Below are positions 31,201 to 37,200 of a stretch of 58,470 nucleotides of DNA, one piece after another. A program made the position numbers. The stretch is from positions 1 through 58,470 of the forward strand of contig JBFJHJ010000019.1 in NCBI GenBank assembly GCA_041613315.1, written 5' to 3'. The stretch is from Gemmatimonadales bacterium. Lineage in GTDB: Bacteria > Gemmatimonadota > Gemmatimonadetes > Gemmatimonadales > GWC2-71-9. How positions within the stretch are numbered: position 1 is the stretch's first letter; each line of letters opens with the position of its first letter.

Positions 31201-34200
31201 GCTCAGCAGCTGTACGACCTCTCGCTGCAGCAGCTCCGCCGCGGCAGTCCCCAGACGGCCCGGGCGGGGTTCCGCAAGCTGCTGTCGGACTTCCCGCAGC
31301 ACCCGCTCGCCGGCGACGCGCAGTTCTTCATCGGCGAGTCGTGGGAGGAAGCCAATGCGGACTCGGCCGCCGTGGCCTACGAGCAGGTCGTCCGGAGATA
31401 CTCGGACTCACGCCACGCGCCCACCGCGCTCTACCGTCTCGGACTCATCGCCGAGCGGCGCGGGGACCGCCGGGCGGCACAGGTGTATTACTCACGCGTC
31501 GTCGCCGGATACCCGCGCTCCGAAGAGGCGCAACTCGCCAGGGCCAAGCTGGGGACGCCACAGCGCTGACGCCCGGCGGCGTCCGGCCTCCGGACCATGA
31601 AGGCGAAACCTCCCAAGGGCGACATGCCCTTCCTCGACCACCTCGAGGAGCTGAGGTGGCGCATCCTGTGGAGCCTGCTGGCGCTGACCATCGGCGTCGT
31701 CGTGGGCTTCTTCGTCGTCCAGCGCTTCGACGTGCTCGGCCTGCTCCGGGTCCCCATCGCGCCGTATCTGCCCGACGGCCGCCTCTTCGTCACCCGACCC
31801 ACCGACGCGTTCATGATCACGCTCAAGCTGGCCGTGGGCGTGGGCTTGGTGCTGGCGTCGCCGGTGATCGTCGCCCAGGTGTGGCTGTTCCTCTCTCCCG
31901 CGCTCTTCCCCCACGAGCGGCGCTACCTGATGCCCGCGCTCATCGCGGGGGCCAGCCTGTTCCTCGTCGGTGTGGTGATGGCGTATCGCTGGGTCCTCCC
32001 CGCGGCGCTGCGGTTCCTGCTCATGTTTCAGCGCGAGGATCTGGAAACCATCATTACCGCGAACGAGTACCTCGCCTTCGCGATCCAGTTGATCGTGGCC
32101 TTCGGCCTCGTGTTCGAGCTGCCCCTCGTGATGGTGCTGCTGGCCGGGTTGGGCCTCGTGTCGCCCGCCACCTTTGCGCGACAGCGGCCCATCGCCCTCG
32201 TGTTGGCCTGTGTCGTGGCGGCGCTGGTCACGCCGCCCGACGTCGCGTCGATGGTGCTCATGCTGGTCCCGATGTGGGTGCTGTACGAAGCGGGGATCGC
32301 CGTGGGGCGCGTCGCGTACCGCCGCCGGGCGCAGCGGACGATCGGGACGGCCGCCCTGGTGCTGCTCGCCGTGGCGGCGGCGCCGGAGCAGGCGGCGGCC
32401 CAGCAGCCCACGCCGCCACCGACCGACACCGCTCGCGTGCGCGTGGACTCGCTCTCCCAACCCATGGATACGGCGGCCGCTCGTCGCTTGGGCCTTCCCA
32501 CGGCGCCGAGCCGCTCCCTCCCGCCCGCCGATTCGGTGCTCCAGGCGCTGCTGCGTCGCGCCGGCTATACCGTCACCCGCTACGCCGGGGATAGCGTCAC
32601 GCTGTTCGGGGAGACCAACGAGATCCAGTTGGTGGGGTCGGCCCTGATCGAGCGCGACGGCACGACGCTCGAGGCGGATACGGTGAGCTTCCGCCAGGCG
32701 GCGTGCCGCCTCCGCGCCAACGGGTCCCCGGCCTTGTTCGAAAGCGGCACGGTGCTCGTCGGAGAGGGGATGCGCTACGACACGTGCGAGCGCCGCGGCA
32801 CCGTCGCCAGTGCGCTGACCAGCTTCCAGCAGTCGGGCGTGACCTGGTACCTGCGGGGCGGCCTCGAGATCGATTCGGCGTCCACCCGCGTCTACGGGGC
32901 TTCCAACGACATGACGAGCTGCGACCTGCCGACCCCGCATTACCACTTCGCGGCGGGGAACGTCAAGTGGGTCACGAACACGATCATGGTCGCCCGGCCG
33001 GCCGTCCTGTACGTGCGCGACGTCCCGATCCTGTGGTTACCGTTCATCTTCCAAGACATGCGGACCGGCCGGCGCACCGGCCTCCTCGTGCCACGCTTCG
33101 GCCTGAGCGACCTCGTGCGCCCGAACGAGGGCTACCGGCGCCATGTGTCCAACCTGGGCTACTACGTGGTGCTGAACGACTACCTCGACGTCCAGGCGTC
33201 GCTCGACTGGTTCGCGGGGAACTACATCGGTGTGAACGGCCAGATCCGCTACCGCTGGCTCGACCGCTTCCTCTCGGGCAACCTGGCCATGTCGCGCCTG
33301 TTCGAGGAGGGCCTGGCGGGGGAGCCGGGCGGCCGGTCGCTGCGGCTCCAGTGGAATCACGAGCAGAGCTTCAGCCAGCGCACGCGACTCACCGCGAGCG
33401 TAGACTTCGCCACGAGCGCGCGCGTCGTGCAACGCAACGCCGTGGATCCGTTTCTCCAGACCGCGACCCTCGGCAGCCGCTTGAATTTCAACAAGCAGTT
33501 CGACTGGGGCACCGTGTCGTTGGGTGGCAGCCGCACACAGGATCTCAGCAATGGAACCGTGTCGCAGACACTACCCACGCTCAGCCTCACGCCCCGGGCC
33601 ATCAACCTGTCGCGCGACGTGACGTGGTCCCCCACGATGTCGCTCACCAACACCCAGACGTTCGATCAAGGTCCGCCGATCCTCATCGCGCGACCGCCCC
33701 TGGACGGCGTGGCCCGCGACGACTCCCTCTTTCCCGACACGCGGACGACATCGCTGTCCGTCGGGACACCGTTACGGGTGGGCCAGTGGAATTGGACCAA
33801 CAGCTTCACCGTCGTGGACTTCCGCACGACGCGTCCCCAGACCCAGCCGTTCACGTTTCCGGATCCCAACAACCCGGCCGACAGCGTCAACCGCTACCTC
33901 GGCGAAGACTTCCGCACAGAGGTCAACTGGGAAACCGGGATCAACCTTCCCACCCTGTTTTCCTCCTCGTGGAAACTGCAGCCGTCGGTGGGGATCCGGA
34001 ACACGACCAGTGGGCCGTTCCTGCTGCGCAACGCCTTCACCCAGGGCGGATTCGTGAGCCAGGGGAAGCGCCTGGCGTTCGGCGCCAGTCTCTCGCCCAC
34101 CCTCTTCGGGTTCTTTCCCGGGTTCGGCCCGATCGCGCGCATTCGGCACGCGGTCTCGCCGCGGATCACTTGGAGCTACGCGCCCGCGGCCGACGTCCCG

Positions 34201-37200
34201 GACGCCTACGCCCGCGCCCTGAACCCGACGAACCCCGACGCCGTGCGGACCAGCCCGGCGCTGCATCAAGTGAGCTTCGGGCTCTCACAGATCTTCGAGG
34301 CGAAGCTCGAGTCGCCGCCGGGGGACACCGCCACGGATCCCCGCCAGGCGCCCAAGCGCAAGCTGCTCAGTATCCAGACGTCGTCGATCACCTATGACTT
34401 CGAACAGGCCAAGCTGGAAGGCCGGAACGGGTGGCGGACCCAGAGCCTCCAGAACACGCTCACGAGCGAGCTCCTCCCCGGCTTCAGCGTCGCAACGACC
34501 CACGACCTGTGGAACGGCCCCGTCGGGCTGGACACGTCGCCGTTCGATCCGTTTCTCCAGTCCGTCTCGGCCCGGTTCACCCTCTCCGCGCGGACCTTCG
34601 CCAGCATTCTGGGGCTGCTGACCGGTCGGGCCCCCCCGGAGGAAGGCCCCGAGGAGCGGCCGGGCCCCCAAGACCTGCTCCAACCCAGCGGAACCGGCCT
34701 CGGGCCGCCCACGAGTCTCGATGCCATCTTGGACCGCCAAGCGACCGCGCCGAGGGGCCGCGGATTGTCTGCGGCGTTCACCTACGATGACCGGCGCACC
34801 CGGCCGCAGCCCGACGCGCCGGCCAGCCGCGCGTTCGGGACCAACCGGACGCTCGGCATGCAAGTCGGCTTTTCCCCCACCGACAACTGGGGGGTGTCGT
34901 ATAACACGCAGTACAATTTCACGACGGACGAATTCACTCAGCACGTCCTGCGGCTCGATCGAGACCTGCATCGCTGGCGCGCCACGTTCTCGTTCATCAA
35001 GTCGCCCAACGGGAACTTCGCGTTCAACTTCTTCATCTCGCTGCTCGACCAGCCGGACATCAAGTTCACCTACGATCAGCGCACCGTCCGCCGGGAGCGC
35101 TGATCGCCCCGCTCGATTGTCCTCTGCGGAGGACATCGAGCCCGCCGATGACACCGCATAACCCATTGTGTTATAATAACATATGACAGAGCCCCGCACG
35201 CGGCACGCTCCCTGCTCACTTGCGTGGCGAGGACGCCTTTATCGAGGAGAGCGCGTATGCGACGCCTGATGGTGATACTCGTGGCCGGATTCGTCGTGGC
35301 CGCATGCCGGGAGTCCACGGCGCCCGGCATCGCCCGGCCCGAGAATCTCACGTACGACCTCCAGCCCAGCGGCGACCCGGCAGAGCCGGCGGGCATCCTG
35401 CTCCGCTGGGATGCGGTGACCGACCCCGGGCTCGAGGTATACCGCGTGTTCTCGCGCCCGGGGCAATCGGGCGCCTTTGGCCTGCGCGCATCCACGACGT
35501 CGACCACGTTCCACGATCGTGGCCGGCCGGATCTCGAGTATTTCGTGGTTGCGGTGAACAGCGACGGTCGGGAGAGCGCGGAGAGTGACCATGTGATCGT
35601 GGACGAGCGGCTCCGGCTTCAGGCGCCAAACTCGCTCAGCAGCATCACGCTCAGCCGCGCGATCCACCTCTTGTGGTCGGACAACCCCTATACGGCGGCG
35701 CCGAACGGCTTCAAGCAGTACCGCGTATACAGCACCGGATTCTCCCTCGACGACGGGCTGTGCGACCCCGCGTGGCGGCTCGAGGGGACGACGGTGGCGC
35801 CCGAGTTCCTGGTGGGCGCGATCACCAACGGCGTGCCGCTCTGCTTCGGCGTCTCCGCCGAGAGCATCGAGGGGTTCGAGAGCCTGTGGTCGCCGCTCCG
35901 GGCCGACACGCCGCGCCCGGATGCCCGCAACATCGTGATGGCGGCGGATCAGTTTGATCCGAGCATGAGCGGATTCCGGTTCTGGCTCGACGCCAACGGC
36001 GACGGCGCAGCCGGGGCGTCCGAGCTGGGGCTGGTGCGCAGCGGCGCGCTCGCGAACAACGACTTCGTCGTGAGCCGGGATGTGAACGGCAACTTCTTCT
36101 TCGTCCCGCTCCGGGCCAACACCACGGTGGCATTGTATGGCACCCAGCCCATCGCGGATCTCACATCCATCGACGTGGCGCCGGTGTCCGGCTACAGTCG
36201 CGTGGCGATCCAGGCGCTGCCCCGCTTCGGCTACGTCTTCCAGATGGATGGGGGCGACGGGTTCGCGCGCTTCGGCGGCATTCGGGTCACGCACGTCGGT
36301 CGCGACTTCGTCATCTTCGACTGGAGCTATCAGACCGATCCGGGCAATCCGGAGCTGTCGGTCGGGGCCGGGATTTTCACGGCCGGCAACGGAGGCCTGA
36401 CGGTCGTGCGTCAGTGACACCGGCGTGCGGGGTGAGCGGTGAGCTGATCAGCTAAAGGGTGCACCGCCCGGCGGCCGGCCAGGTCCGGGCGAGCCCGCCG
36501 CTGGGCGGAACGTGGCAGGGCACACGACCCGCCGCCGCTCACTGCTCACCCCCCGGAGTGAACCCCGCCGCCCTCCGGCGTATATTCCCTCCCGTGCCGA
36601 CTCCGATCGTGCTCACGGGGGACACCCTCACCCTCGACGGCGTCAGACACGTGGCCCGCGATGGCGCCCGCGTCGAGATCGACCCGGCGGCCGCGGACCG
36701 CGCCGACCGCTCCCGCGCGGCCGTCGAGCGAATGATGGTCTCCGGCGAACCGGTCTACGGGGTCAACACCGGGTTCGGAAAGCTCGCGAGCGTGCGCGTT
36801 GCCCCCGACCGGCTCGTCCAGCTCCAGCGCAATCTCATTCGCTCGCACGTGGCCGGCGTGGGTGACCCGCTTCCCACCGATGTCGTTCGCGGCCTGATGC
36901 TGCTCCGCGGGAACGTGCTGCTCAAGACGACGAGCGGCGTCCGGGCCGAGCTCGCCCGGCGGCTCGCTGCCATGCTGAATGCGCGCATCCATCCGATCGT
37001 GCCAGAGCAGGGCAGCGTGGGGGCGAGCGGCGACTTGGCACCGCTCGCCCACGTCGCACACGCCATGATGGGCGAGGGCGACGTCGAGGTGGCGGGGGAG
37101 GTCCGGTCCGCTGGCGACGCGCTCCGCACGGCGGGGATCGAGCCGCTCGATTTCCTCGCCAAAGAAGGCCTCGCGTTCATCAACGGGACCCAAGCGCAGG

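Follow-up and report, generated by a model that had tools for sequence, protein, structure and literature searches.

How does a bacterium use a single reading frame that joins TatC, a polytopic inner-membrane protein, to an LptD-like protein of the outer membrane? This question is raised by a gene in the window, a stretch of 58,470 nucleotides from the genome of an uncultured Gemmatimonadales bacterium (phylum Gemmatimonadota). The join, reported in an earlier note, is confirmed: a complete TatC and an LptD-like part share one open frame, with these features.

31597..35103, forward strand: fused tatC-lptD reading frame, 1168 aa counting the stop codon and uninterrupted; translation may in fact begin at Met10 (31624), which is invariant in 50/50 aligned fused sequences.
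31636..32271, forward strand: TatC domain, residues 14-225 (Pfam PF00902, 1-208 of 208, E 1.4e-60).
32302-32304, forward strand: GTG codon 236, a candidate internal start.
32320..32340, forward strand: positive cluster R242-T248 (RRRAQRT), at once TatC cytoplasmic tail and signal-peptide n-region.
32341..32382, forward strand: hydrophobic h-region I249-A262, 14 residues, a short helix in the AF2 model.
32383..32403, forward strand: c-region P263-A268 with a predicted signal peptidase I site, A266-A-A268 / Q269 (small-x-small, then Q).
32401..32466, forward strand: Pro-rich variable linker Q269-M290, start of the predicted mature LptD (pLDDT <50, model residues 1-19).
32467..32523, forward strand: conserved motif D291-P309, consensus DTAxARxLGLPTxPxRxFP (pLDDT 80-89).
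32575..33057, forward strand: N-terminal beta-jellyroll, about residues 327-487 (model strands E59-E219; approximate limits from DSSP).
33142..35085, forward strand: large outer-membrane beta-barrel, about residues 516-1163 (approximate limits; AF2, Foldseek and the LptD_2 Pfam match).
44712..44864, forward strand: tatA/B/E-family gene (PF02416, E 3.1e-19); the genome search found no other.

The TatC part is full-length for its family, in sequence and in fold. It matches NCBIfam TIGR00945 over residues 13-230 (196 bits against a cut-off of 132.7), and its AF2 model (pLDDT 84.6) has the six-helix fold, which runs on to about residue 242. Foldseek matched the model to the TatC structures 9e01_A, 9dzz_A, 4b4a and 4hts (TMt 0.81-0.84), and identity to 4B4A, 4HTS and 9DZZ is 37-39%. 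According to the papers on 4B4A and 4HTS, helix 6 of TatC is reportedly followed by a cytoplasmic C-terminus. The fusion lengthens TatC at this end by more than 900 residues. Two methionines of helix 6, Met219 and Met222, are conserved (48/50 and 44/50 sequences) and might in principle serve as starts for a shorter protein.

The second part matches LptD_2 (E 5.5e-40) in two stretches, the better being 465-669. It falls in this Pfam family and not in that of proteobacterial LptD (PF04453), for which a search of the genome gave no match. The architecture is nevertheless that of proteobacterial LptD (4Q35, 4RHB, 5IV9, 7OMM, 8H1S), a jellyroll followed by a very large barrel, at only 9-13% sequence identity to the solved structures. 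LptD structures are the top Foldseek matches of its AF2 model (pLDDT 85.7), namely 8h1s_A (E 2.2e-26), 9kn3_A, 4q35_A, 7omm_A and 5iv9_A; a profile search with this part found LptD 7omm_A (E 1.1e-16, query 71-331) and gave weak matches to LptA chains. As in proteobacteria, an LptE is encoded in the genome. Proteobacterial LptD carries disulfides between its N-terminus and C-terminus; here the cysteines are confined to the N-terminal part (C370, C397, C442) and such disulfides therefore cannot form. The conserved motif at residues 291-309 is a further difference from the proteobacterial proteins.

Neither a second TatC nor a second LptD_2 was found in this genome, which is 82.9% complete. With no other TatC and no other LptD homologue found, both halves of the fusion must work. 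The machinery that a cut polyprotein would need is present: besides LptE and the TatA-family gene, the genome has two signal peptidase I genes and two TAT_signal matches over the cut-off.

Could the frame be an artefact of the bin, in which a lost base joined two genes? We found nothing that speaks for this. Logan contigs cover the joint with 0 gaps in four runs from two studies (X1, X3 and X4 of one study, X1 possibly being the source, and X5 of a second). The same architecture occurs in 80/94 sampled genomes of the family, and PF00902 and PF19838 are both present in all of the best 120 public protein clusters. This explanation is hence refuted as far as sequence data allow, in agreement with the earlier note. 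That note had counted fusions in 9/16 family genomes, and the fusion proves to be much commoner. The joint was translated directly in 48 of the 80 fused cases, the other 32 being a single match across the joint without a stop in the search table; 12 'stops_inside' flags were checked and all marked terminal or upstream stops.

The sequence of the joint, ...AVGRVAYRRRAQRT-IGTAALVLLAVAAA-PEQAAA/QQ (the slash marking the predicted cut), bears out its reading as the retained signal peptide of LptD. In the fused junctions listed, the residues ahead of the hydrophobic run include a cluster of the RRR type. An h-region followed by A/L/V/S/T/M, any residue, A/G/S and then Q is found in 43/43 fused and 30/33 unfused junctions, and Q269 is invariant in 50/50 fused sequences. 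Sites of this small-Q kind are typical of the organism: in 75/175 signal-like N-termini of the genome the uncharged stretch runs up to a Q, against a background share of 9%, and in 61/175 this Q is preceded by A/G/S. A Gln directly after the predicted site recalls the Q-rule for Bacteroidetes signal peptidase I substrates, which the abstract of its source (PMC5837995) confines to the Bacteroidetes and does not extend to the entire FCB group; the word Gemmatimonadetes is absent from the main text of this source. A plant-type glutaminyl cyclase (PF05096) was not found in the 83%-complete genome.

The same measurements bear on the suggestion that the chain stays uncut as an envelope-spanning tether, with a seventh TatC helix formed by the hydrophobic run and the periplasmic domain of LptD held to the Tat translocase by the linker. 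A single frame and a flexible Pro-rich linker after the run would suit such a design. However, the run is short (AF2 helix at 249-261, 13 residues, pLDDT ~70) and not longer than in unfused genes, the median length of h-region plus c-region being 21 residues in both fused and unfused family genes. Nor is the linker extended, with a median of 63 residues up to the jellyroll in fused and 62 in unfused proteins. The length of Q269-M290 differs among relatives and, because about 20 linker residues form the conserved ordered motif, the free part is only about 20-50 residues. At about 3.5 Å per residue (our own estimate) this is short for a periplasm about 20 nm wide. Together with the retained cleavage motif, these lengths disfavour the tether, which we regard as very unlikely, and a polyprotein freed by signal peptidase, at a predicted site, is the better fit.

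Two proteins might also arise by internal initiation, at GTG codon 236 here and at other Val, Met or Leu codons elsewhere, which would yield an ordinary LptD precursor, signal peptide included, and leave the full-length fusion a minor or unimportant by-product. Initiation at codon 236 would place five positive charges in the n-region, and a start-capable codon lies before the h-region in 30/43 fused junctions, 15 of these with an SD-like match of 4-6 nt. Moreover, conservation of the signal peptide is predicted by this model and by the polyprotein model alike. However, the SD-like matches are mostly GGTG, produced by neighbouring GTG valine codons, and no match of at least 4 nt is present in the 30 nt upstream of GTG236. 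This codon, to which the earlier note drew attention, is indeed there, but it is not conserved: ATG, GTG or TTG occupies its column in 7/50 fused sequences. Across alignment columns 232-262 a start-capable codon occurs in at most 21/50 sequences per column, and ATG, GTG and TTG are absent between helix 6 and the h-region in 13/43 junctions. An internal start codon is conserved at no position. The fusion also has no tatC stop, so that the termination-reinitiation coupling of unfused relatives cannot operate. We therefore consider internal initiation unlikely.

Comparison with the unfused loci suggests how the frame arose. In other Gemmatimonadota families the same two proteins are encoded in the same order and strand, with the same LptD signal peptide ending in small-x-small/Q and, where examined, the same tol-pal/cpoB neighbourhood. 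The surroundings of the fusion are as follows.

25901..31569, forward strand: Tol-Pal-like cluster upstream of the fusion (Pfam scan, as for its members below; mechanical ORF starts), including a MotA/ExbB (TolQ-like) gene.
27315-28022, forward strand: TonB_2 protein (TolA-like).
28019-29437, forward strand: PD40 protein (TolB-like).
29340-30083 and 30242-30793, forward strand: two OmpA-domain proteins.
30790-31569, forward strand: TPR_6/YfiO-like (CpoB-like) protein.
35224..36417, forward strand: downstream conserved gene with a lipoprotein-like N-terminus.

The downstream gene had no family match in the Pfam scan; in tblastn its forward frame has matches at 54 loci, with identities of up to 65%, against up to 46% for the antisense frame. 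Its neighbours in the Atlas are hypothetical proteins of Gemmatimonadota, and fn3-type domains occur in some of them. In the unfused families tatC is closed by a stop, and its product often has a longer acidic tail at the C-terminus; lptD starts from an ATG or GTG of its own, commonly overlapping as ATGA or GTGA. The tatC stop and the lptD start overlap in 14/27 unfused loci (4 nt in 11, 1 nt in 3), counts that are approximate because the lptD starts were chosen by a simple rule. In the fusion the stop is gone and the positive cluster of TatC doubles as the n-region.

The fused state spans divergence down to about 41-45% identity. Such persistence could also mean that it is selected rather than neutral. 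In the LptD tree it was gained at least three times and lost at least five times. Two genomes of a sister family, f2 (G117 and G079), acquired it independently, the closest relatives of both being unfused. An adaptive fusion, still cleaved but with the join kept by selection, could draw on this breadth and on these repeated origins, from ancestral genes that were already translationally coupled. SRP-dependent co-translational insertion of TatC could bring the LptD precursor, which is very large, directly to SecYEG, or the fusion could hold two envelope machines of low abundance at a 1:1 output. Against this, at least five lineages inside the family reverted to separate genes, all other sampled families manage with separate genes (27/29 non-family loci examined were unfused), and signal peptides and linkers show no sequence difference between fused and unfused forms. 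Moreover, tatC has moved away from lptD in three family genomes, which qualifies the earlier note: the two genes are not adjacent in all genomes. In G012 and G007 the cpoB-like gene is still followed by lptD, with tatC elsewhere, and in G095 the two are likewise unlinked. We judge the adaptive explanation rather improbable. The unlinked genomes and the reversions also leave unsupported the proposal that the Tat translocase and the biogenesis of the LPS translocon are functionally linked; the adjacency of tatC and lptD fits inherited operon order inside the tol-pal/cpoB envelope cluster.

Our preferred reading, to which we give a probability of roughly 65%, is a natural membrane polyprotein that Sec would insert and signal peptidase I would cleave between A268 and Q269, with a probably near-neutral origin from translationally coupled genes. 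It is favoured because the small-x-small/Q site is kept in every fused junction examined, Q269 never varies and internal starts lack conservation. In the family ancestor, a minor alteration where stop and start overlapped would have put the two neighbours at the end of the envelope cluster into one frame, so that the cytoplasmic end of TatC after helix 6 would lead directly into the unchanged signal peptide of LptD (RRR, the h-region, A-A-A/Q). TatC would then be inserted co-translationally, the old signal peptide would thread the LptD part through SecYEG, and signal peptidase I would cut. Mature LptD, beginning with Q269, would pass to BAM and the outer membrane and pair with LptE, while TatC, retaining an extra short C-terminal helix with a periplasmic end, would work with TatA as usual.

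No description of a TatC-LptD fusion was found in our literature search. A similar arrangement is reportedly known from work by Thony-Meyer and colleagues, around 1989-1991, on Bradyrhizobium japonicum FbcH, a cytochrome b/c1 precursor said to be cleaved at an internal signal sequence into two proteins. In FbcH, reportedly, as here, a bacterial polytopic inner-membrane protein runs on into a partner that faces the periplasm, with the signal peptide of the latter kept as the link. FbcH reportedly yields two subunits that share a complex and a membrane, whereas the halves here belong to unrelated machines in two membranes and the cleavage is predicted. The fusion is probably near-neutral rather than a new machine, and the cell most likely cuts the TatC-LptD chain back into two ordinary proteins.

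The TatC and LptD_2 regions of this Gemmatimonadales genome (G000) are encoded by a single frame of 1168 codons, which runs from an ATG to a TGA without an internal stop, and the strand opposite is interrupted by stops. Pfam matches and the frame itself bear out the earlier note's claim that the two domains share one stop-free ORF. The joint between them reads ...AVGRVAYRRRAQRT / IGTAALVLLAVAAA / PEQAAA / QQPTPPP and is gap-free in independent Logan contigs from three runs of one study, among them perhaps the run from which the bin was made, and from one run of a second study. 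A search for sequencing runs gave five of DNA and none of RNA. Together with the fusion of the two genes in 80 of 94 genomes of the family GWC2-71-9, these contigs uphold the view that the fusion is no assembly slip, and the likelihood of an artefact is practically negligible.

Features of the window
25901-31569, + strand: Tol-Pal-like cluster (Pfam) encoding a MotA/ExbB protein, a TonB_2 protein, a PD40 (TolB-like) protein, two OmpA-domain proteins (genes in a row at 29340-30083 and 30242-30793, upstream of the CpoB-like gene) and a TPR_6/YfiO-like (CpoB-like) protein, which ends 27 nt before the ATG of the fused ORF
31597-35103, + strand: fused tatC-lptD ORF (g01501)
35224-36417, + strand: conserved gene with a lipoprotein-like start and without a Pfam family; hutH and hutU lie next downstream
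44712-44864: TatA-family gene (PF02416), the one such gene in G000

At window 31597-31626, all of 50 fused homologues share Met10 of the fused ORF (ATG at 31624), residues 1-9 not being conserved, and the alignment of other organisms' contigs starts at 31624. These observations suggest that the true start may be codon 10, which would give a protein of 1159 aa.

The TatC half is complete. PF00902 matches residues 14-225 over model positions 1-208 of 208 (205 bits against a cut-off of 25.1, E 1.4e-60, Pfam), and the NCBIfam tatC model TIGR00945 gives 196 bits against a cut-off of 132.7. An AlphaFold2 (AF2) model of residues 1-290, built from 50 fused sequences, has a mean pLDDT of 84.6, rising to about 90 across residues 11-240, and adopts the six-helix TatC fold. 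Its best Foldseek matches are 9e01_A, 9dzz_A, 4b4a and 4hts, the TatC matches having TMt values of 0.81-0.84, an rmsd of about 3 A and 37-39% identity (4b4a, TMt 0.84 and rmsd 2.9 A; 9dzz_A, TMt 0.81). The last long TatC helix stops at residue 242 and is followed by a separate 13-residue helix at 249-261 (pLDDT about 70). Since the fused ORF is the only TatC found in G000, the fused or processed protein would be expected to work in Tat transport; six TAT_signal matches, two of them above the cut-off, were also detected in this genome.

The C-terminal half matches LptD_2 (PF19838) in two stretches, the best at 465-669, with 137.9 bits and an E value of 5.5e-40 (Pfam), and has weak LptD matches in NCBIfam. 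It is the sole LptD_2 match in G000, where the sister model PF04453, the canonical one for the LptD C terminus, has no match at E<=1; hence the fused ORF does contain the only LptD homologue detected in the genome, as had been proposed. Atlas clusters of other phyla often bear both PF04453 and PF19838. PF03968 (LptD_N) also has no match in G000, which at 82.9% completeness is no proof of absence. In an AF2 model of residues 269-1168 (74 sequences; pLDDT 85.7, pTM 0.72), a strand sandwich (E59-E219, numbered from residue 269 of the fused ORF) is succeeded by a very large barrel. The profile of our LptD-part alignment (A1) matches the LptD structure 7omm_A with an E value of 1.1e-16 over query positions 71-331, a stretch that extends through the jellyroll into the first part of the barrel, and matches LptA chains weakly; profile and model both place an OstA/LptA-type beta-jellyroll at the N terminus of the LptD part. 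The first 30-odd Foldseek matches of this part are LptD chains (E 2.2e-26 to 3e-08, TMt 0.45-0.61), led by 8h1s_A (E 2.2e-26) and then 9kn3_A, 4q35_A, 7omm_A and 5iv9_A, whereas TonB-dependent receptors enter the list only at E values of 1.7e-05 or above. LptE is encoded on contig C24 of G000 (PF04390, 46.9 bits, above the cut-off). On the basis of these profile and model matches and the presence of LptE, we treat the C-terminal part as the predicted LptD of this organism, belonging to the LptD_2 branch.

Two features set this part aside from proteobacterial LptD, in which disulfides link the N-terminal domain to the C-terminal end of the barrel. The LptD part has cysteines at 370, 397 and 442 only and none in the barrel, so that an N-/C-terminal disulfide of this kind is absent. 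It also has an additional conserved motif at 291-309 (consensus DTAxARxLGLPTxPxRxFP, window 32467-32523), for which we know of no counterpart in proteobacterial LptD. The motif is strongly conserved between a variable linker and the jellyroll and is ordered in the model (pLDDT 80-89).

The joint itself has the layout of a signal peptide. Residues 242-268 (RRRAQRT / IGTAALVLLAVAAA / PEQAAA, then Q) form n-, h- and c-regions with a signal peptidase I-type site, the RRR cluster coming after TatC helix 6. Our own regular expression, a hydrophobic run and then (A/L/V/S/T/M)-x-(A/G/S)↓Q, fitted every one of 43 fused junctions and 30 of the 33 unfused; in one fused row (L051) the site, V-Q-A↓Q, was assigned by eye. 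All 50 fused sequences that were aligned have Gln at the Q269 column. The median length of the uncharged stretch before the site is 21 residues for fused as well as unfused family genes, and the median distances from site to jellyroll are 63 (fused) and 62 (unfused) residues. Unfused lptD genes begin with an ordinary signal peptide, ending in small-x-small and then Gln, such as that of G135 (M-K-R-A-P-R-P, a hydrophobic run and V-A-A↓Q). The suggestion that the joint is a retained signal peptide has gained support from the pattern, the invariant Gln and the matching lengths, and, judged by sequence, the joint appears to be LptD's signal peptide, unaltered by the fusion.

An ending in a small residue and Gln is usual for the signal peptides of G000 (for example, window 32398-32403). 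Of 175 signal-like N termini of long ORFs in this genome, 75 have an uncharged stretch that Q terminates, and in 61 of these 75 the residue directly before the Q is A, G or S; the background share of Q among the polar residues considered is 9%. The endings resemble the Q-rule of Bacteroidetes signal peptides, a rule that the abstract of PMC5837995 limits to that group. Two signal peptidase I homologues were found in G000, whereas glutaminyl cyclase (PF05096) had no match, which is no proof of absence in a genome that is 83% complete.

The sequence shows a single frame, two folds that are intact and a signal peptide left unchanged, with a site of the cleavage type. G000 also encodes signal peptidase I, TatA, Tat substrates and LptE. 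The C terminus of TatC is known to be cytoplasmic. With the end of the TatC half in the cytoplasm, the signal peptide would cross from inside to outside and take the LptD part through SecYEG; signal peptidase I would then cut after A268, mature LptD would depart to BAM and the outer membrane, and a short extra helix would remain on TatC. We give this polyprotein route a probability of about 65%. The same protein might remain uncut as a tether, but next to a cleavage-type site at 43 of 43 fused junctions we consider this very improbable. It is also conceivable, if unlikely, that LptD is made mainly from an internal start. A candidate start codon is indeed present in 30 of 43 fused junctions, and translation from the conserved TatC residues M219 and M222 could in principle yield a product bearing half of helix 6. 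However, none of the internal starts is conserved: ATG, GTG and TTG are all absent between helix 6 and the hydrophobic run in 13 of the 43; start-capable codons occur in at most 21 of 50 fused sequences at any of columns 232-262 and in only 7 of 50 at the column of the GTG at codon 236 (32302-32304), which had been put forward as a candidate start. Shine-Dalgarno matches were rejected as support for an internal start, being mostly GGTG from valine codons.

The searches covered 41 genomes from the family and 151 from the phylum as a whole, and each of these genomes gave matches. The union of both samples holds 94 genomes of the family.

State of tatC and lptD in 94 genomes of family GWC2-71-9
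Fused across the joint: 80
Separate, adjacent: 6 (G035, G001, G135, G080, G010, G170)
Unlinked: 3 (G012, G007, G095)
Contig ends there, state cannot be judged: 5 (G011, G014, G008, G046, G140)

For 48 of the 80 fused genomes the junctions were translated, and the other 32 rest on search tables, with one stop-free match across the joint; stop flags within matches in these tables were terminal or upstream stops in 12 of 12 checked. When the two unpublished genomes, G087 (fused according to the table) and G014 (unjudged), are left aside, the count is 79 of 92. The fusion is far commoner in the family than the 9 of 16 genomes that the earlier note gave. Outside the family, lptD has tatC as its immediate upstream neighbour, on the same strand, at 29 of 29 loci in nine other families (28 of 28 without the unpublished G123). 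The claim that the genes are separate but adjacent in other families holds for adjacency at all of these loci and for separateness at all but two, G117 and G079 of the sister family f2, which are fused. In three family members lptD has no tatC upstream (L045/L046 in G012, L047/L048 in G007 and L050 in G095). In G012 and G007 it still directly follows the TolB-like and CpoB-like genes, tatC being elsewhere; the tatC of G012 adjoins an AcrB-type gene on the other strand. A homologue of the gene at 35224-36417 directly follows lptD in 54 related loci, and its product might be an outer-membrane partner of LptD. The N terminus of this product is a hydrophobic run terminating in Cys, and its neighbours in the Atlas are hypothetical proteins of Gemmatimonadota, a few of these bearing domains of the fn3 type.

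A tree of the LptD parts (FastTree, 74 rows; L069 and the incomplete L070 excluded) requires at least 8 changes of state. Rooted on the other class (f10), these are one gain on the family stem, five losses within the family and two separate gains in f2, each of which adjoins unfused sister genomes; the counts come from one quick tree with a chosen outgroup. Given the repeated gains and losses, and three genomes in which the genes are unlinked, the join would seem to be not required, only tolerated. The same observations also speak against the earlier proposal of tatC and lptD as a functional Tat-LPS pair, and we would argue that the adjacency is an inherited operon order and no proof of a functional link. 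That selection maintains a fusion which is nevertheless cleaved seems improbable to us.

The arrangement of the unfused genes suggests how the fusion could arise. As the lptD start we took the ATG lying furthest upstream in the 25 codons that precede the hydrophobic run or, failing that, the first GTG or TTG in this stretch, and the rule gave a start in 27 unfused loci. At 11 of these the tatC stop overlaps the lptD start by 4 nt, at 3 by 1 nt, and at 7 more the two are at most 17 nt apart; these counts are approximate. Such overlaps mark translational coupling of the two genes, and a one-base change there could delete the stop and bring the frames together. In the reverted genomes G080 and G010 both frames overlap within the Arg/Ala-rich joint, and these reversions look like the fusion event run backwards.

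The fused ORF has its nearest relatives in the tatC and lptD genes of sister families, which are separate and overlap. The nearest precedent known to us for the mechanism is FbcH of Bradyrhizobium, a cytochrome b/c1 precursor that likewise has an internal signal peptide. TatC-LptD would be a polyprotein split at a signal peptide, with halves that serve two different membranes. A search of titles, abstract starts and some passages found no description of a TatC-LptD fusion, and searches on LptD and Bacteroidetes found no paper bearing the accession PF19838. For Gemmatimonadetes LptD, passages of PMC8871954 treat gene distribution and a Tol-Pal cluster, not a fusion.

In public protein data there were 1459 hits at E<=1e-10, and the best 120 clusters all have PF00902 and PF19838; the fused architecture is present in hundreds of public protein clusters, and two ESM Atlas clusters with the TatC-LptD_2 architecture are both from Gemmatimonadota. 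Where the best 120 clusters have names, these are, for Gemmatimonad taxa, 'twin-arginine translocase subunit TatC' or 'Tat protein translocase TatC'. Clusters P0002-P0120 are fused proteins of about 1150-1200 aa whose NCBI and JGI names mention TatC only. Annotation therefore hides the LptD half, and surveys of LPS transport could score these Gemmatimonadales as lacking LptD.

A function for the fusion in its own right is quite doubtful. In one version, the Tat core would be a built-in module for SRP-dependent co-translational targeting of the largest outer-membrane barrel, and the signal-peptide helix left on TatC after the cut would tune Tat assembly; in a bolder one, an uncut fraction would physically couple the Tat site to the LPS-insertion site across the envelope. 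Were either true, TatC-LptD would be the first example from nature in which a translocase of the inner membrane and a factor for outer-membrane biogenesis are produced as a single unit and perhaps also function as one. The polyprotein route, if true, would make TatC-LptD a widespread natural bacterial polyprotein with halves destined for two different membranes. Such a system would let one ask if an outer-membrane precursor of 900 residues that follows a polytopic protein can undergo co-translational export, what signal peptidase I does with an internal signal and if TatC copes with a seventh helix. The polyprotein would also indicate that translationally coupled, overlapping genes of compatible topology are able to fuse and split repeatedly.
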